Shown in pieces: positions 1 through 51,407 of a DNA stretch of 64,000 nucleotides; the first letter of the stretch is position 1, and every line of letters begins with the position of its first letter. Both the position numbers and the translations under genes were made by a program. Source of the stretch: Patescibacteria group bacterium (GTDB lineage: Bacteria > Patescibacteriota > Patescibacteriia > PEXW01); contig JBBTVB010000006.1 of assembly GCA_038063455.1 (NCBI GenBank), forward strand, positions 39,234 to 103,233, read 5' to 3'. The notes below the pieces were generated by a model. It had not been told where the DNA came from, ran no database searches, and worked only from the letters and a program-made list of their open reading frames with translations.

Positions 1-1466
1 CATTCTTCTGCCGGGCACGCTCCGTAGCAATCTCCACCTCTTTTTGCAGTTTAACGTTGAAGAGTCGAATCTCTTCGTACAGTCGCGCCTTTTCTAATGC
101 GCTGGCAAGCTGCGGGCCCAGAAGCTGGAGCAAATTCAGGTCGTCGTTGCTGTAGGGGTCGCCAGAGAGTTTGCCGCCCAGCAGCAGGATTGCAGCGATG
201 CGACCTTCGGTGATAACCGGCGACAAGACTGCGGCATTCAATGTATCGAGCTCAGCTTTTGAACGTTCGAGCTCTGACCTATCGTTTGCATTGGTAGTAT
301 CTTCTATACGTCGCTCAAGCGCTTCCAGAACCACAATACGTTTTTCCCGGCTCAGGTAGCGCACCAGTGAACTTGTATGGTCAAGGACGGTTTCTTTAAC
401 ACTGTCAGGCTTTTCTTGAACAAATATAGTGCCACCTTCATCAGGCAAGAGTATGCGCGCGGACTGGATTTTAAGATCACTATCAAGCCGAGCACTCACT
501 TCGGCAAGGAGCTTCTTCAAATCGATTTCTTTGTTGATTATTTCACTTAGCTGCTGGAGGGCTTTGTCGTAGTCTATGGTGGCTTTGAAAAATATTTTAT
601 CTGATATTTTTGCAAAGCTTCTTTTTAAGGGATCTAAAATGAGAACAACAAGTATACTAATAAGTAATATAGAAATATACTGATACACTTTTTCTTGGAC
701 TAATTGAGGAATTACAAATGAACTTCCAACAATCAGCGCGGAAACAATTAGAACCACTAAAGAATATGTGATTGTACGCAATACGATTAATCGTATTTCC
801 ATGAACCTATGTTTTGTTATCGCATAGGCCGTAAAGCCAACAAAAAATAATGTGGAATAACTCCCAAGATTGCTCAAATCAGAATAACCAAGTAAAGGAA
901 GAAGTAGATTTGTTATTATACCAAAAATAATAGATAATACAGTGCCAAAGAAGAGATACTTTATTTGTATCCTCTGAAGACCACTAGTTTTTCTAAAACT
1001 TGAAGCCAGCAAAAAGATGGAAATAAGAATATAAAAAATAAAGTACGCTACAAAAATGTAATAACCCTGGCTAAATATTGGTGCGATTGGGTGAATATTG
1101 ATATCGCCAACACCTGATATAATCTGATTATTAATCGTCAATAACAGAAGTAGTACTGCGGGAATAAATATTAAAAAAAATGTAAACTTTCGAATTCTTC
1201 TTTGAATTGGGAATGTTGCAGTAAATAGCAATAAAAATGTGGGAATGAAAAATGACCATACAAATGTGAGCTTTGTCCACAATAATGCATTTACATTTGT
1301 GCGCGTTTGGTCGACAATGTAATTGCTTACCGTCCAAAGAACAACAGAGACAACAAAACCAAATAAAACGCGGTTAGCTATACTTTTTTTGTTTCTCAAA
1401 AAAACCAAAAGACCAACAAGAAAATTCAAACCAGCTGAAAGAATTAAAACAAACAAATCAAGCATC
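1..1466 (-). CDS. Sensor histidine kinase, N-terminal ~490 aa only (multi-pass membrane sensor domain + GAF; dimerisation/ATPase core lies beyond the left window edge)
   Basis: Minus-strand frame is open from the ATG at 1466-1464 (MLDLFVLILSAGLNFLVGLLVFLRNKK...) to position 1. About 300 aa of hydrophobic helices are followed by a GAF-like segment (...ELDTLNAAVLSPVITEGRIAAILLLGGKLSGDPYSNDDLNLLQLLGPQLASALEKARLYEEI). A coiled-coil HisKA-like start (RLFNVKLQKEVEIATERARQKN) runs to the edge. The architecture resembles PEP-CTERM-system kinase PrsK (TIGR02916), from memory only. Confidence 0.6.
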
Positions 1467-2249
1467 TTAAGCTATATATTTTTTTTCAAATAAGTCTATC
1501 GCAATTACTTCTGGAATCACAGATGACTTCCGTTTACCTAATAAGATGAAAAATGATTCCGCAATCATGATGCTCGAAGCTAGGGTCTGCGCGAGTGCAA
1601 TATTTGGAATCGCAATTTTTTTCATGACCACCTTCTCTATGGTTTCTTGTTGAATGTAACTAGTTCTGATAGGTGCATATTTTTCTGCTGGAACATTTAC
1701 TGCATTTACTTCTTCTCTGTTCATACCATCTTTTAAGCCAAGGAACTCATTAAATGAAAGACCCCTGGGATCAAATATTAATACGGATGCGCCATAGCCA
1801 ATCGCTTGTGGAGCGAGTACAAATTTGTTCTGTTTACGCGCTTCACTAGTAAGAATGTATGAGTAATACAATTCGTTATAATCAATACAATCGTAAATAA
1901 TGTCGGCCTTTGCAACTATTTCAGATACATTCTTTTCTGTAAGACCTTCCGAGTAAACCTTAATACTCGCGGCAGGATTAATATCATTCAAAGTCTCTCC
2001 GACAACTTCTGCTTTATTTCTTCCTATTGTACTTTTAAATGCACAAAACTGGTTATTGATGTTGACATCGTTATATTTATCAAAATCAGCAATAATTAAA
2101 GACTCGATACCAGACCGTGCGAGTATCTGAGAAGAGATGCTACCCATACCACCACAACCTAATACAGCGACCGCCTTTTTACGTAAAGTTTGTTGTTCAG
2201 TTTCAGAAAAAATTCCAATATTGCGGTCAAACATTTCTTCGTAATTCAT
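1467..2249 (-). CDS. ThiF/MoeB/HesA-family E1-like adenylyltransferase
   Basis: 260 aa. Rossmann motif VAVLGCGGMGS and the E1 signature DFDKYNDVNINNQF (D-x-D-x-V-x-x-N-x-N-R/Q) are present. The length is typical of standalone ThiF-like proteins. Confidence 0.8.
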   Translation of the reverse strand: MNYEEMFDRNIGIFSETEQQTLRKKAVAVLGCGGMGSISSQILARSGIESLIIADFDKYNDVNINNQFCAFKSTIGRNKAEVVGETLNDINPAASIKVYSEGLTEKNVSEIVAKADIIYDCIDYNELYYSYILTSEARKQNKFVLAPQAIGYGASVLIFDPRGLSFNEFLGLKDGMNREEVNAVNVPAEKYAPIRTSYIQQETIEKVVMKKIAIPNIALAQTLASSIMIAESFFILLGKRKSSVIPEVIAIDLFEKKYIA

Positions 2250-2255
2250 ATATTT

Positions 2256-2732
2256 CTAATTAAATAGTGTAAGTATAACTTTCAAACCGCCAGAATAAAT
2301 CATAATCCATACAAGAAAGAATAACACATTGTTAGTAAGAACTAAAATAATTCTTTCTTTGGGTGGAAAATCTACCAAAGATATATAAACCGTTGTTGGA
2401 AGCGGACCAATTGTAACAGCTAAAATTAGGGTCGAAATGACCTTCCCATATTTTACGAAACTTTCACGTTTTCTTAATAACTCTTCTTCTTTCCGTTTTA
2501 TCCAACCCTGAGTGAGTACTACGATCTTATTTCCTGAAATTATTTTATTTTGGTAAAGGTACAATATGAAAAAAGAAAGAAGAATAAAAACTATTGAAAA
2601 AATACAAAAGGTGTAGATACTTCCAATGAGTACAATTGAAGATATCAGAAGACCCTCACCAAAGATTACCAACAGTACAGAGCCAATTATTGCAACTAAC
2701 GTCCCTGAAATTTTTACTATGTATCGTATCAT
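2256..2732 (-). CDS. Small integral membrane protein (4 predicted TM), unknown function
   Basis: 158 aa and highly hydrophobic. There is a 4-nt overlap with the upstream acyltransferase gene and a 6-nt gap to the ThiF-like gene, so it is likely co-transcribed. Confidence 0.45.
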   Translation of the reverse strand: MIRYIVKISGTLVAIIGSVLLVIFGEGLLISSIVLIGSIYTFCIFSIVFILLSFFILYLYQNKIISGNKIVVLTQGWIKRKEEELLRKRESFVKYGKVISTLILAVTIGPLPTTVYISLVDFPPKERIILVLTNNVLFFLVWIMIYSGGLKVILTLFN

Positions 2733-3424
2733 GAAATTGAATACCCCTTCTTTTGCTCATCAAATTTAATTGTCGCGTCTTGTAAATACATAAATAGTCG
2801 AGGATTGTTCCTTTGCAAACTTACTTCGAAATCCTTGACACTCAATATACATGGAAAGGTAAGCCCTTGATACAGACTAGGTTGCCCAATTTTTTTAAAT
2901 GGTATACCTATTTTTAGGACTACTGGAAGTAATCGCTCATCCATCACAGAAAATATATTTTTAATATTGTGCTTCTTTACGTACAAAAAAATCCCCTTTA
3001 TTAAAACCAACATTAGATGATGGCGTCTAAATTCTTTAGCTACGATAAGCCTTGAAATTTCAGCTGACTCATTCCTTTGATAATTGTTAACGTTAATGTC
3101 AATATTGAAATGTTTTTCGATCGGAAACCCATTGGGTGAATCAAGTATAAGTCTTACAGTCGCAGCAATTTCCTTCTTTAAATCTCGAATCACAAAATGT
3201 ACCGAAAAAGAATCCCAATTATCTTTTTCACGACCATTTTCTGAAAGATTTTTGTCAATATACTTATACTCCTCAATATAAACTTGATATCTAAGGCGAT
3301 GAAGTTCATCTAACTCATCAGGGTTTTTGGTGGTATAGAATGTAAATTTTTGATAAAAACTTTTATAAAACCACCAGAATTCAATTTCTCTTCGAATTTT
3401 TTTTACCCAGGGGAAAATTATCAT
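2729..3424 (-). CDS. GNAT-fold N-acyltransferase of the N-acyl amino acid synthase / LuxI-like family (Acetyltransf_5, PF13444-like)
   Basis: 231 aa. The segment LHRLRYQVYIEEYKYID...GREKDNWDSFSVHFVIRDLKKEIAATVRLIL matches the conserved RLRyeVF..E.gw....g.E.D.fD...hHlv.....G..RL core of FeeM/exosortase-associated acyltransferases. This is from recall of the family, not a search. Confidence 0.6.
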   Translation of the reverse strand: MIIFPWVKKIRREIEFWWFYKSFYQKFTFYTTKNPDELDELHRLRYQVYIEEYKYIDKNLSENGREKDNWDSFSVHFVIRDLKKEIAATVRLILDSPNGFPIEKHFNIDINVNNYQRNESAEISRLIVAKEFRRHHLMLVLIKGIFLYVKKHNIKNIFSVMDERLLPVVLKIGIPFKKIGQPSLYQGLTFPCILSVKDFEVSLQRNNPRLFMYLQDATIKFDEQKKGYSIS

Positions 3425-3441
3425 TGTTTTCTATACTTTTA

Positions 3442-4854
3442 TTATATTGCTAATTGCTCATCAGCATTATTTCTTAGTTTCAGCATATTTTCTGACAAAA
3501 TCACCCCTAGTAGAACGGGAATAATTTTCACCTGCGCCTCACGTAAAGATAGAAACAAATCGCTGTCTAACCTAACTTTATTACCGCTTAACAGCGCGAA
3601 ACCCAAAATATCCTCGCCTTTCCCAAATGGGGTAACAATATCAATCTTTTTTGCCTTAAGGTACTTGTAGGCAACAGCACACTCTTTACGCTCGTTAGAT
3701 AGCCCCTCCTCGCTACGCAGGGCTAATTCTTCGGTTACCAATATTTGCCCTGTCCGTTTTAAAATCTTAATGAATACCTGGCTATTATTAATCTTCTCAG
3801 TAGATGAGAAAGCTGTAAAGTTTAAGTTTGTCTTATCGACAAAATATACGACAGAACTACTAAAATGATACTCTTCTCTAAAGATTTTCTCTAGGCCCAT
3901 GATAAATTCTTTTACTGAAGTTTTTTGTACTATCTTAGGCAATACTAACATGGATTCAATCCGCCTCTCCTCGTGTGTTCGTAAAAAGTTCTGTGCCTTG
4001 GAAATAACTGTAGGTATGGTAAGTAATGCAAAAATTGCCGAGAGCGCAGATGGCATCAAGACTCTTATAAATGCATCTTTTGTTGCAACAACAGCATGCA
4101 AAACCATAAAGAGGATAGCGTATGCAATGCCAACCAAAATATACAGCGCCAGCGTAGCAACTGATGTGCGAAAAATTAGACGTATGCCCAAAAAGCGATA
4201 CCGCGTAATTGCATAGGCAGCAAGTCCTACAAAAATACAAGAAAATGTTGAGTCTAGAACATTCACCTGCACACTGTTTGCGAGCATGGGAAGAACAAAG
4301 TCAACAAAAATTACAGGGGCTACCGGCAACAGTAATGCAAGGGTAACTAATCCGAATTGTTTTCTTCTCAATCCATTTTCTCGATGCCATGCTTTTGCAA
4401 TATGATAAATTGCCAGAAGAAGCAGACCGGCCACCCAGAAAGCGTAGATAGAAAATAGCGGCCCTAATTCACCATACGAGGCACTTTCTTGCGCTGTCTG
4501 TAAGAAAGACTGCACCATTAAACCTGGTACAAATGTAAACAGCGCAATCAAAAAGGTTACAACGAGTACGCAAAAAATTAAAAATTTGCTTAGCGGCCGT
4601 TGAATCAACGATCTTATCCAAATATAATTGAATCCGGCTACTAAAGAACCTAACGCAAATGTCAACGCGAGAAAGGTAAATGAATTTACTTGGTATAAAC
4701 TTAAAAAACTCGCAAAAGCCCAGGTGCTTATGGTAAACGCTACCAGTGCAAACCACCTCCTATAGGCCACGCCCTTTGCGCGTGTTGCTACAAAAATACC
4801 TAGACTAAGATTGGCTACACTGGAAAGAAGGGCAAAAAATTGGATGATGTTCAT
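3442..4854 (-). CDS. Multi-pass membrane sensor + C-terminal GAF protein (kinase-less paralog of the histidine kinase at 1-1466)
   Basis: 470 aa with about 8 hydrophobic helices. It ends in a GAF-like stretch (KIDIVTPFGKGEDILGFALLSGNKVRLDSDLFLSLREAQVKIIPVLLGVILSENML), and the stop comes right after the GAF with no HisKA/HATPase. Confidence 0.6.
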   Translation of the reverse strand: MNIIQFFALLSSVANLSLGIFVATRAKGVAYRRWFALVAFTISTWAFASFLSLYQVNSFTFLALTFALGSLVAGFNYIWIRSLIQRPLSKFLIFCVLVVTFLIALFTFVPGLMVQSFLQTAQESASYGELGPLFSIYAFWVAGLLLLAIYHIAKAWHRENGLRRKQFGLVTLALLLPVAPVIFVDFVLPMLANSVQVNVLDSTFSCIFVGLAAYAITRYRFLGIRLIFRTSVATLALYILVGIAYAILFMVLHAVVATKDAFIRVLMPSALSAIFALLTIPTVISKAQNFLRTHEERRIESMLVLPKIVQKTSVKEFIMGLEKIFREEYHFSSSVVYFVDKTNLNFTAFSSTEKINNSQVFIKILKRTGQILVTEELALRSEEGLSNERKECAVAYKYLKAKKIDIVTPFGKGEDILGFALLSGNKVRLDSDLFLSLREAQVKIIPVLLGVILSENMLKLRNNADEQLAI

Positions 4855-4855
4855 A

Positions 4856-6292
4856 CTAAGTTGATACCTGCTTCTGTGCTGCTACAATCGCGTTGTAATA
4901 CATAACCGAGGTTTGAATATGCGGAAACAAATCTTTACGGATTTTGCGCGCAAAGGCAACATCTTCTTCGCTATAAATATTACCACCCTTTCTTTTGCCT
5001 AATACAATTGCCCCAAAAAACTGATCGCCCACTCCAAATGGAATAAGCATGCTTATGTTATTTTTCTCTAAAATTCCATAAATCTTTTGCAAAAGAATTG
5101 CTTCTTCATCATTTAACCCTTCCGCTTCCAGAATTATTTCTTCTGCAATACGTACATCCTCAAATTGTCTTAGGCACTGGAAAAAAGGGTCCTGATACGA
5201 AAACACAGATTTATACGCATGACCCGCAAAAGGCTCTAAAAAACCAGTCTTGCGGTTATACCAAATAAAACCCATCTCTTTAACTTGGAACTGCTTTTGT
5301 ATTTGTGGCAATGCTTCGGCCATAAGCTTTTGTAAGGGTAGCTCGGGCTTCCCTTTAAGGATCGGTGCATCAACTTTAGGTGCTTTATACAGGGGCGGAA
5401 AAATAACAGTTGTAAACAAATACTGAATACCTTGGCGCAGAAGAAACGCCAAACCAATCCCAAATATAAAAAGAATGCTAAATGCAGCCTCACTATTCAA
5501 ACTTACAGTTTCAACAAGGTACCTAAATGTTTGAAGTAAAGATATAAGCAATATTCCACCTGCCCCACCGTAAAAAATTGTGTATACAAATGCTCGACCC
5601 ACTGCTTGTCGAAGGTTCAATAATCTATAGCGGAAAATTGCCCGTATACTAAGTAAGCTAAACAACAAGCCTGTGTTTGAAAAAAATATATACGCATCTG
5701 GGCTAATAGGACTCACTATTGATACGTATGCGCTAAGAATTACCAAAAAAACCATTGGTAACAAAAAACCAAGTGCAACATACTCTAGTTGCTTTTTTTT
5801 AATACCTGTCGAAGCTTTGTAATTTTTAAAAATTCCCATACAACCCAATACTACTATGATGCTTATTCCAGAAATGTAAATCGCGTAGTAACTTGGAGTA
5901 AAGCTCAAAAACTCATCTTTATTTGGAAAAAAATCGGTAACAAATGGTAGTACTATTACAACGCCCGTAACAAAAAACTGTAGGAACGAAAAAAAATTTG
6001 ATTTTATGATTTTAACAGGAAAACGCCAGCTAAATTGTGTGAATGAAAAGGCGACGAGTACAGCTGCGATAAGATCGATGGCAGATAAAATTGAATTCAC
6101 CCTTCCACCGGAGACAACTAGTGCGTCGACATTCACGGACAAAAGCCAAAGGAACGAAAATAATATTACAAAAAAATAATACCTGCCTCCAATATTTTTC
6201 CTCCAACCTTTTATGGCTAAATATCCAACAAACACAAAAAGTCCGACGTTAACGGCGGACAGCAGGTAAATTGCCAGGCGGATTGAGTTCAT
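4856..6292 (-). CDS. Multi-pass membrane sensor + C-terminal GAF protein (second kinase-less paralog)
   Basis: 478 aa with the same architecture. The GAF-like C-terminus reads ISMLIPFGVGDQFFGAIVLGKRKGGNIYSEEDVAFARKI. The gene stops 1 nt before the next gene's start at 4854. Confidence 0.6.
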   Translation of the reverse strand: MNSIRLAIYLLSAVNVGLFVFVGYLAIKGWRKNIGGRYYFFVILFSFLWLLSVNVDALVVSGGRVNSILSAIDLIAAVLVAFSFTQFSWRFPVKIIKSNFFSFLQFFVTGVVIVLPFVTDFFPNKDEFLSFTPSYYAIYISGISIIVVLGCMGIFKNYKASTGIKKKQLEYVALGFLLPMVFLVILSAYVSIVSPISPDAYIFFSNTGLLFSLLSIRAIFRYRLLNLRQAVGRAFVYTIFYGGAGGILLISLLQTFRYLVETVSLNSEAAFSILFIFGIGLAFLLRQGIQYLFTTVIFPPLYKAPKVDAPILKGKPELPLQKLMAEALPQIQKQFQVKEMGFIWYNRKTGFLEPFAGHAYKSVFSYQDPFFQCLRQFEDVRIAEEIILEAEGLNDEEAILLQKIYGILEKNNISMLIPFGVGDQFFGAIVLGKRKGGNIYSEEDVAFARKIRKDLFPHIQTSVMYYNAIVAAQKQVST

Positions 6293-6408
6293 AGGCAGCA
6301 GTTCATCAGAAGTGCCCAGATTTTGGGCAGTCCCCTAACTGGGGAATGGTTGACGTTTGCCGCCTACATTATGCAAGATTTTGGGGGAAAGGGCAAATTG
6401 TAAAACGG

Positions 6409-9456: not shown

Positions 9457-10065
9457 CTAGTAAAAATTGAAAGAACTGAGAGTTTTATTGTACTCCTCTT
9501 CAAATGTTTCAAAGGCGCTCTTTGCGCCAACACTACCTGTTATTTGAATTGCAACATTTCCCTTCTTAACACTTGCAACAACAAAAGGAAATGTAAAAAA
9601 CTCCGATACTGTGCGTATCGCCTCTTGACCATCAACTACGACCGCTTTTTGAGATCGAATTGTATTGTCCTGCACCCCCTCCGCTGCAAGAGTTTGAAGA
9701 CTTACGCTGGGATCAATGTGTTTGGCGGCTATCGTGAACTTTAGTCCAGCCAGCAATTCAGTATCAACATTTTGTACTGCCGCGATCGGGTCAAGAAAGG
9801 AAATCACTTCGCTGTTTGCGAATGGTTCAAGCGTCCATGAGGCGGGAATGGAAATACTATACCTATAGTTGGTATTTGTTAAAACATTTTTCTCTTTGCC
9901 TATAGAGTACACTACCGATGATACCTGGCTCTCAACTTGAGTTCCCTGTTTATCTTTCTTCGTCAACCAAAAAGCCGTCCCAATAGCACCTATTGCAAAG
10001 AAGGCTGTGATAAGAACATAGTGCACGCTGCGGTATGAGAATGAAAGGTGAAATGTATTTTGCAT
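9457..10065 (-). CDS. Membrane-anchored hypothetical protein
   Basis: 202 aa with one N-terminal TM helix (VLITAFFAIGAIGTAFWL) and a soluble C-terminal domain. Confidence 0.4.
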   Translation of the reverse strand: MQNTFHLSFSYRSVHYVLITAFFAIGAIGTAFWLTKKDKQGTQVESQVSSVVYSIGKEKNVLTNTNYRYSISIPASWTLEPFANSEVISFLDPIAAVQNVDTELLAGLKFTIAAKHIDPSVSLQTLAAEGVQDNTIRSQKAVVVDGQEAIRTVSEFFTFPFVVASVKKGNVAIQITGSVGAKSAFETFEEEYNKTLSSFNFY

Positions 10066-10149
10066 ATGATAGGAGTTGAGTATAGTAATATTTTTAATAA
10101 GGGGGAGGCAATAATGTCTTACCTCCCCTAGTATAGCAAGTGAAGTGAC

Positions 10150-10836
10150 CTACTGCGTACTCATACATAATTGGTTGGATGAGTAGTAACTATTAATTAA
10201 CAGGGGGTCCTTTCCAGAAATACCATTCTGTATCACGGAAGACCCTTTCCTATACACCACAAAATGGATATGCGGTGTAGTGGTTCCAGTATTTCCGACT
10301 TGACCCAAATATTGCCCTTGAGAAACCCATTGCCCAACGCTTACAGCAATACTGAGCATATGGGCAATGCGGTATCTATATCCATTGCCCGCATCTACAA
10401 GGATGAAATGGCCATAACCTGTCCAACCGCGAACAACTTGGATAACAGTGCCATTCGCCGGAGCAGGAATAGCGTGACCATAATCTTGCCAACCAGGCAA
10501 GCTCCAATCAACAGCGTTATAGTCAGACCCCGTATGATAGGATGACCCACCATTAGGCCCATACCCTGCAGAAATGTAGTAACTTCCACAGAAGGGAAAC
10601 TTCCAACCACCAGGATACGCATTGTAACTCGCCGTCGCCATCCCCTGCCGCTGGTCGCGCGTGCCAGTGATGGAATCGGTTGAGGTCTGGGTATTGTCCA
10701 TTGCCGCAGCAACAGACTCGATCGGGTTGGAAGATTTCTCTTCCGAGCAGCCAACCAGCAGGTTAGTTGCGTAGATGCCAGCCACGAGGGCCAGCGTGAG
10801 CACGAGGGTGTTCCTCGATTTCATGATGTAGTCCAT
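10150..10836 (-). CDS. M23 (LytM-type) metallopeptidase lipoprotein
   Basis: Lipobox LLVGCS is present. The M23 motifs are HTGSDYNA (HxxxD) and GNTGTTTPHIHFVVY (HxH), with a conserved GYGHFILVDAGNGYRYRIAHM core. Confidence 0.85.
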   Translation of the reverse strand: MDYIMKSRNTLVLTLALVAGIYATNLLVGCSEEKSSNPIESVAAAMDNTQTSTDSITGTRDQRQGMATASYNAYPGGWKFPFCGSYYISAGYGPNGGSSYHTGSDYNAVDWSLPGWQDYGHAIPAPANGTVIQVVRGWTGYGHFILVDAGNGYRYRIAHMLSIAVSVGQWVSQGQYLGQVGNTGTTTPHIHFVVYRKGSSVIQNGISGKDPLLINSYYSSNQLCMSTQ

Positions 10837-11048
10837 TCTGCAAGCCCTCGAGGCTTGCGGGTGTTGTGTTTGTACTCAGACAGTTGTTTTTCCTCGTGTT
10901 CGCGGTACACGGGCACCGGTGGTAGGTCTGCCAGCCTTTCCAGTTCTAGCAGAATGCACCTCACTTTCTTGGGAATGTACGTTGTGGGTTTATGAGGGAC
11001 TATTCCCTCGGGTGTTTGTTTACAAATGTAGGCTAACACGAATATTTA

Positions 11049-11097
11049 GTGTTTTTTCCTGAGTTATCCACGACAGAACAGCGCCGTCGCGACGGCG
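11049..11097. repeat. Intergenic repeat, copy 1: T-run + DnaA-box-like TTATCCACG + perfect 16-bp palindrome CGCCGTCGCGACGGCG
   Basis: Sequence is gtgttttttcctgagttatccacgacagaacagcgccgtcgcgacggcg. The second copy at 14468-14517 is about 85% identical. It sits between two minus-strand genes. Confidence 0.7.
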
Positions 11098-11133
11098 ACT
11101 ATCCCTCGTCAGTAAAATGCCTAAAGCCCAATA

Positions 11134-11724
11134 TTATCGCTTTTTCCAGCCCTCATCCTGGTCTACCAAGCGGTCTTTAATGACCTTGCGCAGGTAGTCC
11201 GCCTTCTTCAGTTTCGCTTTCTTCGCCCGCCAATCCAGGTAGTCATTGAGCTCTTTGGTTAAGCGGAAGGTAAATTTAATGGTCGGCAATTCCTGCGTCT
11301 GCTCTGCCTCGAGTGCGTTTACAAAATCCGTCACCATTTTTTGTGCTTGATTGCCGCCGTAGCTGTGTACTTTAATTGTGCTGGAGATGTTTTTCCCTTC
11401 CAAAAATTTTAGGACTCCGCGGTTCGAAATGTCTTTATCATACAAGTACAACGTCGGACGGCGCTGGCTTATGGCGTAGGCCAGCAAGTAGCCCAGGTCG
11501 GCATCTGGCGTGGAGCCTTCAATAATGAACGCGTCCATCTTGTCCAGCAAGCTGCCGCCCTTTTCCGCAATTTCATCCATCTCGGCTTTGGGCATGTCCA
11601 AACTATTCTGCCCGTCGTTCGTAATAAAAAAGGTGTGTCGGTCTTTCAGCACACCAAGCAAATCCTGGCGCACATTGGCCAGTCGCTCTTTGCTGCTCGG
11701 AGCTTGGAAGTAGTACACGCGCAT
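11134..11724 (-). CDS. Nucleoside 2-deoxyribosyltransferase-like domain fused to C-terminal ribbon-helix-helix DNA-binding domain
   Basis: The N-terminus has VYYFQAP...DAFIIEGSTPDADLGYLLAYAISQRRPTLYLY, an NDT-like Rossmann core (D..GT.fElGyA...gKP). The C-terminus KFTFRLTKELNDYLDWRAKKAKLKKADYLRKVIKD is a CopG/Arc-type RHH. Confidence 0.55.
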   Translation of the reverse strand: MRVYYFQAPSSKERLANVRQDLLGVLKDRHTFFITNDGQNSLDMPKAEMDEIAEKGGSLLDKMDAFIIEGSTPDADLGYLLAYAISQRRPTLYLYDKDISNRGVLKFLEGKNISSTIKVHSYGGNQAQKMVTDFVNALEAEQTQELPTIKFTFRLTKELNDYLDWRAKKAKLKKADYLRKVIKDRLVDQDEGWKKR

Positions 11725-11726
11725 AC

Positions 11727-12737
11727 CTAGGTGGGGCTAACTACTTCCCCGGCCTGGTCGGCCAGCATGAAGGTCCTCAGCTTAGCCAGGGGTAGTTTTG
11801 CGCCTAACCCCCACATGAGTTTGACCAGCGTCACTTCCATGCTCATGCGGTTGATAAAAACCCGATTTGGGCCAGAGACAGGTGGCGACGACACACCCCG
11901 GCTGTAAATGACAACTGGCACAGACCCATCTATGCGACTATCGAGCATACTGAGAAACCGCAGGAGTGTGCCGAGGTCGGCATACCGCACCACAAAGCCG
12001 TGCGCGCGCTGCAAATCCATACGCTCAAAGGTATGCAAATCTACACCGGGTTGCAGGTCGATAAGCTGCACGCGGTCATCAGCGGCGACTTTAATGGCGG
12101 GTAACGTGGAATTGCGTTTTGGCGCAGTTGGCAGTAAACGAACCCCTAAGGTGAGCGAGCCAACGTACTCATCGCCAAGCGCGTCAAAGAAGTTCGTCGA
12201 CACATCGTCCGAGCGCACAGCCCGTACCGCCTTGAGCAAACGATTACCAAACATAATAAGCACGCCCGAAACATCGAGCGTGGCGGTTTGGATGGCGTTG
12301 AGTAAATGGACTTTATAGCCGAGCTGGCCAAATTGGTCTAAAAATGAATCCAGCTTTACGGCCACTTTCGAAACGAGATTTGCCCCAGAGGCTGTGAGTA
12401 CTACCGGTTTGCCCAACCCGCGGAACATCATGGCCAGCATGCTGCCGGTGTAGGCCATGGTTTCCAGGTCATGGATGACGACAAAACCATCATACCGACG
12501 CAAGCCACTGCGCAACACGCTTCCCAGGCGTACCCAGTTTTCCGCCGACGTTACCGGCCCTTCGGTTGGCACGAATTGTACATCGACATTGGCTAGCACC
12601 TGCAACTCCGCATGTCTTTTTGCCCAGGTGTCTAACACTTGTCGTTTTGGGTTTTTTGTACGTATGCCAAGGTCAGGCAGGATTGAGCTGCCGAATAACA
12701 GAATTGCGACTTTTTTCCGGGCTACGATCTTTGCCAT
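11727..12737 (-). CDS. L-asparaginase-like family protein (catalytic Thr of the TGGTIAG motif apparently absent)
   Basis: 336 aa. VAILLFGSS...YDGFVVIHDLETMAYTGSMLAMMFRGLGKPVVLTAS aligns to the asparaginase/GatD N-domain (HGTDTMaytA...KPVVlTGS). Its stop abuts the start codon of the 11134-11724 gene, with only a 2-nt gap. Confidence 0.55.
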   Translation of the reverse strand: MAKIVARKKVAILLFGSSILPDLGIRTKNPKRQVLDTWAKRHAELQVLANVDVQFVPTEGPVTSAENWVRLGSVLRSGLRRYDGFVVIHDLETMAYTGSMLAMMFRGLGKPVVLTASGANLVSKVAVKLDSFLDQFGQLGYKVHLLNAIQTATLDVSGVLIMFGNRLLKAVRAVRSDDVSTNFFDALGDEYVGSLTLGVRLLPTAPKRNSTLPAIKVAADDRVQLIDLQPGVDLHTFERMDLQRAHGFVVRYADLGTLLRFLSMLDSRIDGSVPVVIYSRGVSSPPVSGPNRVFINRMSMEVTLVKLMWGLGAKLPLAKLRTFMLADQAGEVVSPT

Positions 12738-12816
12738 TGGTATTAGGGTACTGCGACGGCTAGCTGTTGGTCAATAAAATGTATACCTCGGGTATCCCCT
12801 ACGATTTACTGGTTCC

Positions 12817-12871
12817 CTCCCCTCCTTATCTAAGGAGGGGCAAAAAATTACCATTACTTAATGCGTAAGAC
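12817..12871. repeat. Left flank of DUF559 cassette: hairpin CCCCTCCTTA-TC-TAAGGAGGGG plus inverted 9-mer ATGCGTAAG
   Basis: A perfect 10-bp-stem hairpin lies at 12817-12838. 'atgcgtaag' at about 12859-12867 is the reverse complement of 'cttacgcat' at about 13365-13373. Confidence 0.6.
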
Positions 12872-12917
12872 TTTTTCTGCGACTACTCTGCTCACCGTCA
12901 AGCTCCTGGGGTGGTAA

Positions 12918-13325
12918 CTACGGACAAGGGTGTTGCAACGCACAACGTATGTAGTCTAAAGCGCCGTACTGGTTAACGCTAATCGATCGGGCAGAGAGGC
13001 GTATTACACGAAGCCCGAGTTGCTCCAAATATCGGTCGCGCAATCTGTCTTTTTGTATTTTGCCTGGCTCTCCGTGCTGGTCACCATCAACTTCAATGAC
13101 GAGGCGTTTTGCTGGACAATAGAAGTCAACAATATACCTGCCAATACTATGTTGACGTCTAAATTTTGCACCGAGTCCTTTGCCTTTGAGATGCGCCCAA
13201 AGTACAACTTCTGGCGGCGTCATATTTTTGCGCAGTTGCCTGCGGTACATTGCTAACCGGGTATGATTATGTATAGCTTGGGTCATAATAATTACCACCC
13301 CGGCTCCCGCTGTGGCGGGATCCAC
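12918..13325 (-). CDS. DUF559 / Vsr-like (PD-(D/E)xK) endonuclease-domain protein
   Basis: RRQHSIGRYIVDFYCPAKRLVIEVDGDQH fits the DUF559 core. The true start is probably one of the internal Met codons at 13286 or 13250. Confidence 0.6.
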   Translation of the reverse strand: MDPATAGAGVVIIMTQAIHNHTRLAMYRRQLRKNMTPPEVVLWAHLKGKGLGAKFRRQHSIGRYIVDFYCPAKRLVIEVDGDQHGEPGKIQKDRLRDRYLEQLGLRVIRLSARSISVNQYGALDYIRCALQHPCP

Positions 13326-13329
13326 CCCT

Positions 13330-13375
13330 CCTTATGCAAGGAGGGGAAGGGTAAGTTACATCCAAATAGCTTACG
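13330..13375. repeat. Right flank of DUF559 cassette: hairpin CCCCTCCTTA-TG-CAAGGAGGGG plus 9-mer CTTACGCAT
   Basis: Same hairpin stem as at 12817-12838, with a 2-nt loop difference, followed by the inverted 9-mer. Confidence 0.6.
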
Positions 13376-13379
13376 CATA

Positions 13380-13799
13380 CTACTTAGTACGCAAATGCAT
13401 CGTTCGACGAAAAATATCTTGTACTAGGACGAGGATAAAACCGGTTAGCCATGCGGCGATTACGATTATGAGTCCAAACCAAGGGTAAAGAGCATCCATG
13501 TCATAGCGGCTATAGGCTGATCCGGCGGGTGTCGTTTGTGTCACCCAATACTTGAAAGCGAATGGGGAAAGAGCACTCAAGATGACGAAAAAACTTCCCA
13601 GCATTATTCCGAGCCGAAAGAATTTTTGCTTCATCGTGCCAGATATGAACGCAAAGACCACGGCAAGGAGAACTGGCAGGATGACCTGGGCGAATGTTTT
13701 TACTGTTCCGGTATCGCCAATGTCCTTACGGAAATAGATGAGCGCTGCAGACAGTATTGCACCGAACACGCCTATGACGATGGGGAAATATTTTTTCAT
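13380..13799 (-). CDS. Small integral membrane protein (4 TM), unknown function
   Basis: 139 aa and hydrophobic, on the same strand as its neighbours. Confidence 0.45.
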   Translation of the reverse strand: MKKYFPIVIGVFGAILSAALIYFRKDIGDTGTVKTFAQVILPVLLAVVFAFISGTMKQKFFRLGIMLGSFFVILSALSPFAFKYWVTQTTPAGSAYSRYDMDALYPWFGLIIVIAAWLTGFILVLVQDIFRRTMHLRTK

Positions 13800-13887
13800 A
13801 CTCGAGGGATAAATTGAGATGCCGCCGCGTCCTTTAGGGAGTTGACTGGCATAGAAGGTCGTCCAAAAGTATGGACGACCCGAAGAA

Positions 13888-14361
13888 CTAGTACTGCAAA
13901 CGGTAGCTGCTCGGACTACTTGTACAGGCGGCGGGTATTTTGGTACCCATAAATATCATGATGCGAAAACCTGATGAGGTCCAGCGGGCATCATGCAACT
14001 TAACTAAAGGGTAACCAAATGGCTGCCACTGCCCGGTACGTAATCGACCATAGAAATACACGGTCCCAGGATTGTACGGAAGGTAGAATACGGCCATCCA
14101 GTCGTCATCCCCTTCGATGTTGTCATGCCACGGGATAACCCCATATGCGTGCGTCGCACCCAAGACTGTGGCTTCGGGTCGAGGGCGTTCCTGATGACCG
14201 ACGGTATCAACCACGCCAAGGACGATAGGCTCGGTAACCATACCTGCCAGTGAATCAGACTGGTTTGTGGTCCCAGCTGAAGTGGGCTGTACCGGTGAGG
14301 TATTACACCCCACCAACCCCATGACGAGCAATACTGCTGCAGTTGCGAGAATCCGTTTCAT
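13888..14361 (-). CDS. Lipoprotein, unknown function
   Basis: The likely start is MKRILATAAVLLVMGLVGCN, a signal peptide with lipobox LVGC. The ORF-track start at 14388 is 9 codons further upstream. Confidence 0.5.
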   Translation of the reverse strand: MKRILATAAVLLVMGLVGCNTSPVQPTSAGTTNQSDSLAGMVTEPIVLGVVDTVGHQERPRPEATVLGATHAYGVIPWHDNIEGDDDWMAVFYLPYNPGTVYFYGRLRTGQWQPFGYPLVKLHDARWTSSGFRIMIFMGTKIPAACTSSPSSYRLQY

Positions 14362-14467
14362 GGGATTCTCCTTTCTTTGAAAGAACATTATGGATTGTGC
14401 TACTCACCTCCTTTCCAGGTTAGATGAATAGCGTTTGTTGTTAGTTACAGGCTACCAGGTATTTTTG

Positions 14468-14517
14468 GTGTTTTTTGCTCACTTATCCACGACAAAAGCG
14501 CGCCGTCGCGACGGCGC
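14468..14517. repeat. Intergenic repeat, copy 2: T-run + TTATCCACG + palindrome (GCG)CGCCGTCGCGACGGCG(C)
   Basis: Sequence is gtgttttttgctcacttatccacgacaaaagcgcgccgtcgcgacggcgc. It lies 24 bp downstream of the DUF2207 gene stop. Confidence 0.7.
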
Positions 14518-14543
14518 TGGTTTCATAAAAAACCTCTCAATTG

Positions 14544-16238
14544 CTACCACCCTCCTCCCCCGCCTCCGCCAAACCCACCCCCAGAGAAGCCACCCCCGCC
14601 CGCCCCAGAACTGCTCGGAGCGGTTGCGAGTGCACTGTGTACGTCGCTAGAAAAACCGCCAATGCTGTTGGCAAAGAGTAACGCGTTAAAGGTCCCTAGG
14701 TTGTCGCTATACCAGCCCGGTTGCGGAATAGCCAGGTCTGCAAACTGCCCTGCCCACTCTTTTTCCACGCCTAGGGCCACGGCGTAGGGCAAAAATTCCA
14801 TAAACTGCTCGGGCTTGCGCGCTGGGGCATTGTGAAACTTTAAGCGTTCGGCTTCCGTCACGGAGAGAAACCATGTAAACCCTTGGACCTCTTCCAATAT
14901 CTCTGCGCCTAGTTTGGTACGCGCTGGCATCAGCAGGCCATAGATGACGACAATAAGCGCCGAGCCTAATGCCGCCAAGAATGGCACGACAAGCAGCGTC
15001 CCTTGTTGCAGGATGGCAAAGAGCAGGCATGTGCCTACCCCAAGCAAGCCCAGACCTATGCTGGCCGCTTGCACCATGCGCGGGTCGCGTGCGTAGACAC
15101 CTTGCGTTACCAATTGGTTGCGGGCATCAGCGATGACGGCTTGATACGTTGTGGCAAATTTGTATTTTAGCGATTGCGTTGTTACTACGGTGCCGTCTTT
15201 GAAGAGCCCTTCGAGTAAAGTTTTTTCGTATGCCTGCAACTGCTGGTCTGGCGCCTTACGCCGCGTGAATTCATAGTTGTGTTTGTTCCCTAGCATGCCG
15301 GCTTGGCCCAGGTCTTGTATGCTTAGGTAGCCGCGGATGGCAAGGTGCAGGATAGTCGCAGCAAACTCTTTAGCGCCAACTTGGTTGTCGGCAACCGCAC
15401 CAACCACCGCCGGGAACATGCCGCGCGGACTTTCGTACTGCGGAATTACGGTGCCCCGGCCTTTGGGGTCCCGCCCGCGTTTGTGCCACTGCCAGTGCAT
15501 AATGATGAGTGCCAGCAATGGCAAGAGCACAATCCAGTTGTCTTGCACAAAATAGCCAACGCGGGTTTGCGTGGTTTCCGTGGCAACGGTTCCTGCCGGG
15601 AGCCGCGCCGCTATGGTTAGGCCTTCACCGGTCGCTAGCGCTTCCGCGGAAAATGTGACGACGCTATGCTCGCCAGCCTTTACCGTACAATCCTGCGCGG
15701 TGGAACTCAGCACGCCCGTGTAGCAGGAAGGCTGAAGCGCCTCGGCATCATTGTGTAGCGTGAGGGTTGCTGAGGCAACAGCAATCGGCACATCCCACCC
15801 ATTACCAGTTACATTCCAGTACACTTCATCCTGCCCATCAAACTGGGGCAACGCACGTTTAACTGTGTACTGAATAATGTACGTGTGCGCTCCAGTTACA
15901 GTTACGTCAGGATCGCCAATGCGGATGCGTAACTGGCCGCTCGGGTGTTGAAGTTTATAGGGCTGCGGTGTTGACACACCATCGGTCACCCTCTGTATGT
16001 CGTAACGGACAGTAAATCGCTGGCCGCTTTTTTTGTACGTCACTGGCAAGTCGCGGTAGATACCATGGTGGGACACGTTCGCAAAATCGTACGCAATATG
16101 CTCGACCACCTGGATGGTGCGGTCAGGCCGCACGGTAAGCTCTGCCCGGAAGTTGGTAATATGCTCACCACCATTCCCTTGAGCCAGCGCTGGCCAAGGG
16201 AACAGGATAAACGCAGCAATAAGGAGCCAACGTCGCAT
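14544..16238 (-). CDS. DUF2207-family membrane protein with C-terminal Gly-rich tail
   Basis: The likely start is MRRWLLIAAFILFPWPALAQG (signal). It has an extracellular domain, TM helices and a terminal GGGGFSGGGFGGGGGGGW tail typical of DUF2207. The ORF-track start at 16505 adds 89 poorly conserved codons. Confidence 0.65.
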   Translation of the reverse strand: MRRWLLIAAFILFPWPALAQGNGGEHITNFRAELTVRPDRTIQVVEHIAYDFANVSHHGIYRDLPVTYKKSGQRFTVRYDIQRVTDGVSTPQPYKLQHPSGQLRIRIGDPDVTVTGAHTYIIQYTVKRALPQFDGQDEVYWNVTGNGWDVPIAVASATLTLHNDAEALQPSCYTGVLSSTAQDCTVKAGEHSVVTFSAEALATGEGLTIAARLPAGTVATETTQTRVGYFVQDNWIVLLPLLALIIMHWQWHKRGRDPKGRGTVIPQYESPRGMFPAVVGAVADNQVGAKEFAATILHLAIRGYLSIQDLGQAGMLGNKHNYEFTRRKAPDQQLQAYEKTLLEGLFKDGTVVTTQSLKYKFATTYQAVIADARNQLVTQGVYARDPRMVQAASIGLGLLGVGTCLLFAILQQGTLLVVPFLAALGSALIVVIYGLLMPARTKLGAEILEEVQGFTWFLSVTEAERLKFHNAPARKPEQFMEFLPYAVALGVEKEWAGQFADLAIPQPGWYSDNLGTFNALLFANSIGGFSSDVHSALATAPSSSGAGGGGFSGGGFGGGGGGGW

Positions 16239-22231: not shown

Positions 22232-22295
22232 ATTCTTCTTTACTTTGAGGGCTGGCCGTGGATCCGAGTCCCGCCTAGCGGGACGAGAGGTTCAC

Positions 22296-22466
22296 GGTTA
22301 TCCACAGGACTAAAGGCTTATCCCCACTTTTATCCACTTTTCACCGTGTAAAGCCATTTTACACCACTTTCCTACTCTGGTCAACCACTTGGCACAAAGC
22401 GGGCTTACGAAAGGCACAACAAAAGCAGGCCTTTTTGGCAAGGCTTGTACTGGGTTGTGGATAAAT
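22296..22466. promoter_or_regulatory. Cluster of DnaA-box 9-mers upstream of mraZ: TTATCCACA (22298-22306), TTATCCCCA (22318-22326), TTATCCACT (22330-22338), and TTATCCACA on the minus strand (22456-22464)
   Basis: These are direct matches to the consensus DnaA box TTATCCACA. Two are perfect and two have one mismatch, all within about 170 bp of the mraZ/HD-gene intergenic region. Confidence 0.6.
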
Positions 22467-22467
22467 C

Positions 22468-22500
22468 AAAAACCCCACACTCGTCGCATGGGGTTTAAAA
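22468..22500 (-). terminator. Rho-independent terminator of the HD-domain gene
   Basis: On the minus strand the hairpin AAACCCCA-N11-TGGGGTTT is followed by TTTTGATTT. Confidence 0.6.
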
Positions 22501-22504
22501 ATAG

Positions 22505-38521: not shown

Positions 38522-38605
38522 AGGCTATGCTAGCTTATAAGTAACCCTGTCTTTCACGGGATACCCTTGAACGGGTTGGGGGTCTGCATTCTACGGAATG
38601 CAGAC

Positions 38606-48673: not shown

Positions 48674-48743
48674 AGGTAAGCTTGCCAATTTGGAGTCTTA
48701 GACTGAACAGAGGTTTATACTTTGAATAGACAGAGGGAATCGA

Positions 48744-48857
48744 ACGGGTGCGACCCATTGGGAGCACCCCGGCCCACAGGGCGATTCCCGTTACCCGCTC
48801 CAGCTCGTTTCGCGCTTCGTGCTCGCGTACGCTGCGCACCTGTCGCGCGGGGACCCC
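48744..48857. repeat. Degenerate tRNA fragments: inverted copy of motif GGGGTGCTCCCRATGGGTCGCACCCGT (48744-48770), then a duplicated tRNA-Gly 3' end (T-arm + acceptor + CCA) fused to a truncated trailer element ending GGGGACCCC
   Basis: gattcccgttacccgctcca at 48783-48802 repeats the tRNA-Gly 3' 20 nt. The following ccagctcgtttcgcgc...cgcggggacccc parallels the trailers after the other tRNAs. Confidence 0.6.
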
Positions 48858-48878
48858 AGGGGAAAGTTTGAAAGATGT

Positions 48879-48954
48879 GCCGATGTAGCTCAGCTGGTAG
48901 AGCAATGCTTTCGTAAAGCATGGGTCGGAGGTTCGAATCCTCTCATCGGCTCCA
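48879..48954 (+). tRNA. tRNA-Thr (anticodon CGU)
   Basis: Acceptor GCCGATG/CATCGGC, anticodon loop TTCGTAA, T-arm GGAGG-TTCGAAT-CCTCT. CCA is encoded. Confidence 0.8.
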
Positions 48955-49097
48955 GCTCGTTACGGGCGTCGGGTTCCGCGTCCCCGCATCCGCGAGGCCG
49001 CTGCACCCTCAACCCGCAACTTCGCTTGACCCCACGACCGCGTGCTCGTCGTCCCGCGCAAGCGCGTGACTCCTGCGCGCCACGCTCGTGGGGACCC
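48955..49097 (+). repeat. Conserved tRNA 3'-trailer element, copy A (core 49023-49097: CGCTTGACCCCACGACCGCGTGCTC...GCGCGCCACGCTCGTGGGGACCCC)
   Basis: It starts immediately after the CCA with GCTCGTTACG. Copies also follow tRNA-Trp and tRNA-Thr(GGU), and there is internal dyad symmetry (CCCCACGA...TCGTGGGG). Confidence 0.65.
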
Positions 49098-49104
49098 CGG
49101 GAAG

Positions 49105-50214
49105 CTATTCCTGCGTGTTTGTATTTGCGTCAGCTTCAGGGTCACAGGCAGGCTCGGTTTTTGCTTGCACGCCGCACTCGGCTTCCCACCGGAATCGGGG
49201 TTCGAACAGCATTACCCGGCTTTCCTTCACTTTCGTATTTACCGTATCTTGTAGCCAGGTGTTAAAGTTGGGGGCTTTCAAAATTCGGCGCAGCGTGTAC
49301 ATCGTGCCATCGGCCTTCTTGGCGGCAGCTTCGGTTTTTTCCACCTGTACAATTTCGTAGCCGCGTGTGGTTTCCAGCACCTCGCTCACCTGCCCGGCCT
49401 TTAAGGCTTTCAGGGCTGTTGCTGCATCCCCGTACGCTTCTTCAAGCTGCTTGGTATTCAAAGCATCGAGCAAGCCACTCTTGGCTGCCGAGGCATCGTC
49501 GCTCTTCGCTTTAGCCACATCACCAAAAGTCTTGGCGTCTTTGGCAACGCCGTCCCGAATCCCCTGCGTTTCTTTCTTGGCGTCTGCATAAAACCCCGCC
49601 GCAATCTTATCCTGCACCACTTGCGGTTTTATGAGTTTGGCTTTGAACTGTGCCACGTCCCAGCCGTAAAGCTGCTGGATGTACTTTTCAACCTCCGTGG
49701 CATTGCCCGACTGCTCGACATAACTGTCGTAGGTTGCATCAATATCGGCTTGCGTAACGGTAATATTTTTTTCCTCAGCAATTGTGTTAAGTACGCTTTC
49801 CCCGACCATCTTATTTAAAATAATCCGGCGCGTGTATACATCCTGGCTCAGACCCAGTTTATCGGCAGCGTCAGGGGCAGCATTGCGTTCCAAAAAGCTA
49901 GAAATGTTTGGCACGTCGGTCTGGTATTCGTGGTACGACAGCCAATCCCCGCCCACCACGGCCACCGGGAATGGGATGTACTTGGCTAGCCACAGCAATG
50001 CATCATTTTGCCAGCTAAAACGCATGTAGCCTACGGCAAAAACCAAAACAATTGCCACAATACCTGCCCCAACCCACAGGCCAATACGCTTGAGCCAATG
50101 AATGTGTGGCGGGGGCAGTTGCTTGAGTTCTGGGTGGGCAGGATTTGGCAGCTCATGCTCTGGCTTGCTGAGTTCGCTGCGGACGGCTTCGTGATCGGGG
50201 TGGATGTCTGGCAT
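49105..50214 (-). CDS. Membrane-anchored SurA/PrsA-like chaperone-domain protein
   Basis: It has an N-terminal TM (IGLWVGAGIVAIVLVFAVGY) and a SurA-N-like helical domain. The assignment is weak. Confidence 0.4.
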   Translation of the reverse strand: MPDIHPDHEAVRSELSKPEHELPNPAHPELKQLPPPHIHWLKRIGLWVGAGIVAIVLVFAVGYMRFSWQNDALLWLAKYIPFPVAVVGGDWLSYHEYQTDVPNISSFLERNAAPDAADKLGLSQDVYTRRIILNKMVGESVLNTIAEEKNITVTQADIDATYDSYVEQSGNATEVEKYIQQLYGWDVAQFKAKLIKPQVVQDKIAAGFYADAKKETQGIRDGVAKDAKTFGDVAKAKSDDASAAKSGLLDALNTKQLEEAYGDAATALKALKAGQVSEVLETTRGYEIVQVEKTEAAAKKADGTMYTLRRILKAPNFNTWLQDTVNTKVKESRVMLFEPRFRWEAECGVQAKTEPACDPEADANTNTQE

Positions 50215-51397: not shown

Positions 51398-51407
51398 AGC
51401 TATGCTT

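Follow-up and report, generated by a model that had tools for sequence, protein, structure and literature searches.

Introduction

Multi-copy lipoprotein genes with conserved upstream operator regions are found in Borrelia (erp/mlp) and in Mycoplasma (vlp/vsp). Other repeated intergenic elements are the repetitive extragenic palindromic (REP) and Correia (CREE) sequences. These are found in either orientation, at 3' ends or at random TA sites (REP typically in 3' untranslated regions or between convergent genes), and are bounded by terminal inverted repeats; Correia elements can also carry promoters and terminators. The attC sites of integrons are built as an imperfect R''/L''-L'/R' palindrome with a GTTRRRY core, and the integron integrase is encoded in the locus. 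For the Patescibacteria (Candidate Phyla Radiation, CPR), which cannot be cultured alone and encode few regulators, we know of almost nothing on the control of transcription. Here, we describe an intergenic element of about 85 bp, termed the cassette, that occurs twice in a stretch of 64,000 nucleotides from a Patescibacteria group bacterium (assembly GCA_038063455.1, contig JBBTVB010000006.1, positions 39,234 to 103,233 of the forward strand), referred to as the window. We consider it probable, though by no means certain, that each copy is a terminator/operator joined to an activator-dependent promoter and that the copies define a regulon of mostly secreted and lipoprotein genes within one uncultured groundwater lineage.

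As in the Borrelia and Mycoplasma systems, a near-identical promoter/operator and 5' region, partly including the signal peptide, is common to lipoprotein genes whose mature parts differ. However, sequence and phylum are unrelated, the cassette includes a terminator-like palindrome, and neither a phase-variation tract nor invertase sites were seen. With REP sequences, bacterial interspersed mosaic elements (BIME) and Correia elements it shares the character of a short multi-copy intergenic element with a palindrome. Unlike REP/BIME, all cassette copies are co-oriented with the downstream gene and have a fixed promoter geometry, and unlike miniature inverted-repeat transposable elements and Correia elements, the cassette, which begins with AGCGCC and ends with AAACAAAC, has no terminal inverted repeat visible in the alignment and no target-site duplication, and its flanks are unrelated. 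The attC sites and Vibrio cholerae repeats of integrons are likewise palindromic sites repeated between consecutive small genes, in arrays, but the cassette palindrome is perfect and free of bulges, lacks the GTTRRRY core and is located 5' of genes together with a promoter, and no integrase was present among the neighbouring open reading frames (ORFs) scanned. Elements of this kind are familiar, but no description appears to exist of the cassette family itself, of its length and invariance or of the way in which its half-site is reused as an operator. A literature search by sequence string and by topic yielded nothing relevant on the cassette family.

Copies of the cassette in the window and in related genomes

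The 16-bp palindrome CGCCGTCGCGACGGCG has two sites in the window, 11082-11097 and 14501-14516, and no third one appears when up to two mismatches are allowed. Two occurrences compare with an expected number of 0.03, and none of 100 shuffled sequences reached two. Segments 11049-11097 and 14468-14516 align without gaps at 43 of 49 identical positions (88%), and TTATCCACGACA is exact in both. These results bear out a first-pass annotation of this DNA, which had described two copies of about 85% identity with a perfect 16-bp palindrome, each located between a minus-strand stop codon and the minus-strand gene that follows. All genes adjoining the two copies indeed lie on the minus strand. Copy 1 is situated 36 nt past the stop codon (11134-11136) of a gene for a ribbon-helix-helix (RHH)-like protein of 196 amino acids, and the next ATG, at 10836, belongs to a gene for an M23-peptidase lipoprotein. 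Copy 2 lies 26 nt past the stop codon (14544-14546) of a DUF2207 gene and is followed by a small lipoprotein gene starting with the ATG at 14388 or 14361. The length of about 50 bp originally assigned to the element proved too short, as the full repeat comprises 84 nt (11014-11097 and 14433-14516, ungapped, 66/84 or 79% identical). Just beyond it, identity drops to 17-24%, and the flanks are unrelated. A profile search of the window revealed no copies beyond these two.

Anatomy, copy distribution, orientation, spacing and conservation could be established directly from 25 distinct copies in five independent datasets of related Patescibacteria, i.e., the window's species, a Logan relative, sample Ga0172379, the Hainich dataset ERZ1292623 and dataset ERZ21828314. 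The loci are cited below by L numbers. Scanning metagenomes with the pattern GGCGCNNTTNTGTCGTGGATAA returned 17 loci from two groundwater datasets. Several of them hold two or three copies, and the densest arrangements are three copies in 5.1 kb and five copies in a single 24.5-kb contig. L018 (GC-rich coding sequence) and L021 (AT-rich, from an unrelated organism) were left out of the count as chance matches. L033, L004, L034 and the copy L026:3403 (the last by nhmmer) were found without use of the pattern and are the only ones unbiased for the 19 bases that it fixes. The first three match the core as far as each extends, and in L026:3403 a single core base is changed (TATCGTGG). Conservation also covers parts that the pattern does not include, namely the left arm of the palindrome, the CTCGG that follows the box described below, the -10 block and AAACAAAC. 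L033, whose MurF is 73% identical to that of the window, contains a syntenic copy with the same core. Homologues of MurF assign the clade to the Patescibacteria/Parcubacteria. In the close relative L004, the identical palindrome and tail follow the DUF2207 gene, and the preceding 40 nt are unrelated. Positions 10000-16000 had no megablast match in phages, plasmids or E. coli genomes, a genome-contig scan with TGTCGTGGATAAN{4,8}AAAAAACAC gave only unrelated Prevotella/Segatella matches, and a scan of viral contigs gave none.

All copies point to their downstream gene. For 22 of the 25 copies, an ORF on the same strand and at least 60 codons long begins within about 80-320 nt; two of the other three are located at a contig end, and one (L026:802) is followed by no ORF of that length. 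On the upstream side, most copies are preceded by the end of a co-directional ORF at a distance of 20-190 nt. At least 15 of 24 downstream products were recognized as having a signal peptide or lipobox, among them M23, C39-like and DUF6973 proteins and a family of small lipoproteins whose signal peptide is conserved. Among the other products are enzymes of the radical SAM, NTP-transferase and dCTP-deaminase-like types. With 25 same-oriented intergenic copies, some of them in related genomes, the earlier proposal of a dispersed regulatory element is supported, and the possibility raised with it, namely that the element is unique to two sites and missing from relatives, no longer applies. Its description as REP-like, on the other hand, is not supported, because the copies face the downstream gene, keep a fixed spacing to a -10-like block and lack terminal inverted repeats.

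Note that two Logan contigs end inside the element (L004 31 nt and L034 30 nt in) and that L002 starts just past the repeat. Such ends are consistent with breaks of a k=31 de Bruijn graph at multi-copy sequence and are a practical warning for short-read assemblies of these genomes.

Predicted promoter architecture and leader RNAs

Read on the gene strand, the cassette consists of the palindrome (A)GCGCCGTCGCGACGGCGC(T), a GTTTTG tail, the box TCGTGGATAACTC, a spacer with A/T tracts, (C)GTGnTAGCCTA, about 6 variable nucleotides and finally TG-AAACAAAC. From the box to the TG, 20 copies have a distance of 24 nt and the other five one of 25 nt. Within the diverged spacer, two A/T tracts occupy fixed offsets, and A-to-T strand swaps occur in five copies. 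TGn directly precedes TAnnnT in all 25 copies. Promoters of this lineage that have a perfect -35 (TTGAC[AC]-N16-18) are equipped with GC-rich TAnnnT hexamers, e.g., TAGGCT, TAGACT, TAGCTT and TAAGGT, and at the asparaginase-like operon TGCTAGCTT is located 16 nt after a perfect TTGACA. Because the canonical -10 hexamers of the lineage, including TGCTAGCTT, have the same style, TGnTAGCCT of the cassette is credible as an extended -10 element. The box would then be placed at about -52 to -38, and the A/T tracts would fill the region from -35 to -18. In having TGnTAnnnT in every copy, suitably oriented and spaced relative to the gene, no usable -35, a conserved site just upstream of the -35 position and phased A/T tracts, the cassette resembles activator-dependent (class II-like) sigma-70 promoters of the extended -10 (TGn) type. 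It differs from them in that conservation spans the entire stretch of about 85 bp, almost as in a phage promoter, and in its fusion to a hairpin. Readings as sigma-54, extracytoplasmic function (ECF) sigma, sigma-28 or Bacteroidetes -33/-7 promoters were rejected after comparison with the consensus by eye, since spacing or key bases do not fit. Elsewhere in the window, the plus strand at 38528-38600 contains an isolated TGCTAGCTT -10-like element and, after it, a GC-rich stretch that may be structured and has no obvious ORF.

Three types of conserved leader, A, B and C, occur after cassettes and were found only there. All of them have a hairpin displaying UGGAAAG and pair an SD-like (Shine-Dalgarno-like) GAGGUGA. 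Type A has a length of about 200-250 nt and contains several hairpins, the first of which is nested, with compensatory changes in five pairs. This covarying hairpin begins about 12 nt past the -10 element and provides indirect support for the predicted start site. Type B is characterized by a 10-bp hairpin pairing the Shine-Dalgarno (SD)-like sequence GGAGGUGA, and type C by a CUGCUAG/CUAGCAG hairpin. In the leader of copy 2, the real SD sequence is covered by a second hairpin, and the lipoprotein gene follows at 13888-14361 (or to 14388). The leader of copy 1 precedes the M23-peptidase lipoprotein gene at 10150-10836. Further leaders are present in L016, L020, L023, L028, L030 and L031. Rfam searches yielded no non-tRNA matches at gathering scores and no match within 10700-14700 at E<=1. 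At E<=0.5, applied to six loci, only sub-threshold matches of miRNA models to L019 hairpins outside the cassette appeared, and cassettes and leaders stayed unmatched. The leaders may constitute an undescribed class of cis-regulatory RNA.

The palindrome as probable terminator and operator

The stem of the hairpin comprises 6-7 GC-rich pairs, or as many as 13 if the flanks are counted, and the loop has 4 nt; the consensus hairpin folds at -22.7 kcal/mol (z -4.2). On the gene strand the hairpin is followed by (C)UGUUUUGU in 23 of the 25 copies; the window copies instead have GCUUUUGU and CUGUUCUGU. The whole 66-nt segment of copy 1 folds with -22.3 kcal/mol (z -2.56) and the whole 61-nt segment of copy 2 with -17.9 kcal/mol, at a weak shuffle z of -1.05. 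Both window hairpins were classified as terminator-like on the gene strand in a consensus scan with a criterion of five T in eight positions. The first-pass annotation had denied a U-tract on both strands and had therefore discounted a terminator. Neither statement is upheld, as the T-rich tails GCTTTTGTCG and CTGTTCTGTC directly follow the palindrome on the gene strand. Like intrinsic (Rho-independent, including bidirectional) terminators, the cassette has a GC stem-loop and then a U-rich tail, located 20-40 nt past a stop codon in many copies, and several copies have an upstream A run. Unlike these terminators, stem and loop have the same sequence in 24 of 25 copies across species. The HD-gene terminator upstream of mraZ keeps its shape and changes its sequence among the relatives, whereas the cassette palindrome is unchanged. 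The palindrome is also intact in L028, where a divergent Nudix gene lies upstream.

A second property sets the palindrome apart from a mere hairpin: its half-site recurs as direct repeats, without hairpin, at another promoter. In L035 (17813-17900), AGCGCCGTCGC is present as two direct repeats with a period of 17 nt just after the -10 element of an asparaginase-like/RHH operon, and at the promoter of the same operon the repeats have the opposite orientation in L033 (17443-17530) and L024 (2720-2810). These three relatives thus share two exact direct repeats of the half-palindrome at this site. Direct repeats are unable to form this hairpin, and only recognition of double-stranded DNA fits a flip between strands. 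The palindrome is therefore probably also an operator for a DNA-binding protein, and the earlier notion of a factor binding to it gains support. A candidate binder of the half-site is the 196-amino-acid protein encoded by the second gene of the operon, which is a lead rather than a finding: matches to RHH families are weak and were obtained for three orthologues, and a single-sequence structure model of the protein is too poor to use (predicted local distance difference test, pLDDT, 46.6).

Proposed mode of action

In the reading that we favour, the GC palindrome and its T-rich tail would form an intrinsic-terminator-like hairpin, which probably ends the upstream transcript and would insulate the downstream gene, and the palindrome sequence would double as the operator discussed above. 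The box TGTCGTGGATAAC(TC) and the two phased A/T tracts would replace a -35 element and most likely recruit an activator or provide contacts for RNA polymerase. TGnTAGCCT would serve as the extended -10, with the conserved TG-AAACAAAC providing the start some 7 nt further downstream, and the transcript would open with one of the few conserved structured 5' leaders, which expose a UGGAAAG loop and hold SD-like sequences paired. Transcription start, termination and protein binding are inferred here from sequence.

Several observations are difficult to accommodate. The T-tail is broken by a G and is weak in window copy 1 (CUGUUCUGU). At the asparaginase-like/RHH promoter, the window keeps only one degenerate half-site, and L022 has no operator repeats at its asparaginase-like promoter. 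The search pattern fixes 19 bases, the invariance of which is thus partly given by construction. A simple sigma-70 scan called no gene-strand promoter in the window cassettes, and there is no -35 hexamer 16-18 nt upstream of the -10 element: the best match is 3/6, in a place taken by variable A/T tracts. Note, however, that extended -10 promoters need no such hexamer. As a -35 is lacking and a conserved box and A/T tracts take its place, dependence of the promoter on an activator or on DNA shape is suggested.

The positions of the features in and between the two window copies are compiled in Table 1.

Table 1 Elements of the two cassette copies and of the intervening operon in the window
Feature	Position	Strand	Remarks
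Copy 2, palindrome, 18-bp perfect GCGCCGTCGCGACGGCGC	14500-14517	-	26 nt after DUF2207 stop; RNA with 7-bp GC stem and 4-nt loop
Copy 2, T-rich tail GCTTTTGTCG	14490-14499	-	Directly 3' of hairpin; overlaps start of box
Copy 2, conserved box TGTCGTGGATAAgtg	14480-14494	-	Plus-strand reading TTATCCACGACA, DnaA-box-like; about -52 to -38 of predicted promoter
Copy 2, variable spacer	14458-14479	-	Two phased A tracts (AAAAAA, then AAAAA); box-to-TG 24 nt
Copy 2, extended -10-like TGgTAGCCT (TGn + TAnnnT)	14449-14457	-	Start site predicted near 14442
Copy 2, conserved CAACAAAC	14433-14440	-	
Copy 2, type B leader	14362-14432	-	Hairpin GCUAUUCAUC...GGUGAGUAGC (14399-14432) displays UGGAAAGG and pairs SD-like GGAGGUGA
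Asparaginase-like/RHH operon promoter TTGACC-N18-TACCCT	12745-12774	-	Between the two copies; degenerate half-site GCCGTCGC in spacer (12753-12760)
Gene for 196-amino-acid protein, second of asparaginase-like/RHH operon	11134-11724	-	C-terminus weakly RHH-like; N-terminal domain weakly Rcl/DNPH1-like
Copy 1, palindrome, 16-bp perfect CGCCGTCGCGACGGCG	11082-11097	-	36 nt after stop of gene for 196-amino-acid RHH-like protein
Copy 1, T-rich tail CTGTTCTGTC	11072-11081	-	Weaker than tails of other copies
Copy 1, conserved box TGTCGTGGATAACTC	11061-11075	-	
Copy 1, spacer with A tract	11039-11060	-	Box-to-TG 24 nt
Copy 1, extended -10-like TGtTAGCCT	11030-11038	-	Start site predicted near 11023
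Copy 1, AAACAAAC	11014-11021	-	
Copy 1, leader of about 180 nt	10837-11013	-	Hairpin GAGGGA...UCCCUC, a shortened outer stem of type A, followed by the type C motif GAGGTGCATTCTGCTAGAACTGGAAAGGCTGGCAG

The DnaA-like box

In every copy the box reads TTATCCACG, and position 9 is always G (gene strand cGTGGATAAC, never the consensus T). It thus departs by one mismatch from TTATNCACA, the stringent DnaA-box consensus. Only the two window copies and L033 give independent evidence for the invariance of this base. The base is fixed by the pattern in the metagenome copies, and in L004 and L034 the sequence stops short of the full 9-mer; L026:3403 carries the same base, with the core departing at TATCGTGG. 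The intergenic boxes of the lineage outside cassettes are perfect TGTGGATAA(C). One of these, kept in four relatives, directly follows the terminator that precedes the mraZ promoter, and others reside in the lexA-side intergenic region.

In principle, the 9-mer could function as a DnaA box, with a second factor using the palindrome as its operator, so that DnaA, e.g., via the DnaA-ATP level, co-regulates the genes. Examples of DnaA-regulated promoters with DnaA boxes are those of nrdAB and dnaA in E. coli. We regard this model for the cassette as rather unlikely; it may also be viewed as one particular form of the activator step proposed above. The window contains nine sites for GTGGATAA versus 1.25 expected, perfect and conserved boxes lie by mraZ and in the lexA-side region, and the half-palindrome is operator-like elsewhere. 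The cassette box matches TTATCCACA at 8/9 positions and shares 9/10 bases with the perfect boxes of the other promoters, its flanking C corresponding to that of box R1 in the oriC of E. coli. Against DnaA speaks the box sequence cGTGGATAAC in 25/25 copies (a base partly fixed by the pattern), which never has the consensus T. Each cassette has a single box, and conservation runs well past the 9 bp on both sides. Moreover, the boxes after the mraZ promoter fit a 10-nt-periodic AAAGTGG, the pattern expected of MraZ operators, which may explain part of the enrichment. Binding of DnaA to the cassette box is possible but not the simplest reading.

The control region of mraZ (22232-22504, minus strand) is conserved across the relatives and consists of the HD-gene terminator, a perfect TTATCCACA box, the promoter TTGACC-N17-TAAAAT and AAAGTGGataAAAGTGGgg with a third GTGG box. 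The AAAGTGGataAAAGTGGgg repeats after the promoter look like the MraZ operator repeats of Mollicutes and E. coli. An origin of replication was suspected at 22.3 kb on account of the cluster of GTGGATAA sites and was discarded, as the neighbours are an HD-domain gene and mraZ-rsmH-ftsL-PBP-murF, the start of the dcw cluster, and not dnaA.

Alternative origins and functions of the repeat

A quite different explanation is that the cassette is a site of recombination or mobility, the invariant core marking the exchange or insertion boundary of cassettes of promoter, leader and gene that diversify the surface proteome. The copies are densely clustered, short-read contigs break at them, and the same upstream gene can be followed by different downstream genes (e.g., L016:2464 versus L027 and L024:7951 versus L027). 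In the window, furthermore, a cassette and the M23 gene are found where L033 and L035 run directly from the RHH gene to a HisKA_7TM gene. We nevertheless consider this explanation decidedly improbable. A scan of 30 ORFs near cassettes revealed neither an integrase nor a recombinase, terminal inverted repeats and target duplications are missing, and there were no viral matches. The cassette and its type-B lipoprotein gene are syntenic in the window, L033, L024 and L022, which indicates vertical inheritance, and the homology breakpoints do not fall exactly at the palindrome.

It is highly improbable that the palindrome hairpin is the end of a plus-strand small RNA or cis-antisense RNA gene. A plus-strand promoter-like TTTACA-16-AATATT is present in copy 1, and the A run before the palindrome in some copies would be a T-tail on the opposite strand. 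However, the promoter-like site is not kept in copy 2 or in the tract-swapped copies, most copies are without a T-tail on the plus strand, and there was no Rfam match even at E<=1. Also, A-to-T swaps at fixed positions suit DNA geometry and not RNA sequence. Finally, we give next to no credence to a plain intrinsic terminator without promoter or operator role, the surroundings of which are similar through recent duplication: hairpin and T-rich tail do stand directly after stop codons, but conservation extends about 60 nt past the tail, in blocks around a diverged spacer of fixed length, the element is kept without a co-directional upstream gene (L028), ordinary terminators of these genomes drift in sequence, and the half-site recurs as direct repeats that form no hairpin.

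Implications

A terminator/operator joined to an activator-dependent promoter would provide a concrete, testable regulon together with a predicted promoter architecture for the lineage, in which the -10 element is a GC-rich TAnnnT. The cassette also supplies a candidate operator motif, GCGCCGTCGC, and a practical metagenome marker for co-regulated genes that probably function in interaction with the host.

A more far-reaching view, which we offer as unlikely, makes the cassette the cis-element of a master switch that is specific to the lineage and controls the surface and secreted proteome of an episymbiotic CPR bacterium, with a dedicated regulator at the palindrome and DnaA or a DnaA-like reader at the box, and/or with the core as the crossover point at which promoter-gene cassettes are shuffled. 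The candidate for the palindrome regulator would then be the nucleoside-deoxyribosyltransferase-like/RHH protein, which is encoded beside its own half-site repeats. If such a switch existed, the expression of lipoproteins and peptidases would be tied to nucleotide or replication status.

Further features of the cassette neighbourhoods

Between the two window copies, the hairpin CCCCTCCTTAnnnAAGGAGGGG occurs twice (12815-12840 and 13325-13350) and brackets a DUF559 endonuclease-like gene. The equivalent place in L033 is occupied by a GIY-YIG gene, and a small mobile nuclease insertion is suggested. Positions 1-6300 of the window form a block of low GC content (34-39% versus about 52%) with two HisKA_7TM kinases, an autoinducer-synthase-like gene and a ThiF-like gene. 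In other loci (L024, L029, L033 and L035), cassettes repeatedly have a HisKA_7TM kinase gene as a neighbour. In L026 (863-1862), the cassette is followed by about 1 kb with small ORFs only and then by a radical SAM/SPASM gene; this could be a precursor region for a ribosomally synthesized and post-translationally modified peptide.

A second family of GC-rich repeats, GGGGTCCCCnnnnnnnTGGCGCG...GAGCACG...GGGG..AAG.G.GGC, has a length of about 150-190 nt and shorter tandem units. It is located at 48740-49115 and 51405-52965 of the window, where it flanks tRNA genes, and upstream of cassettes in L019, L022, L025 and L030-L032. In at least eight metagenome copies it adjoins the cassette palindrome. 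No Rfam match was obtained for this family, which could represent a non-coding RNA or a promoter family. In the same part of the window, an extra tRNA-like sequence at 52287-52360 reached 44.9 bits with Rfam and was missed by ARAGORN, and tRNA-Thr with about 160 nt of downstream sequence is duplicated in inverted orientation (48878-49113 versus 52605-52840; 236 nt, 79%).

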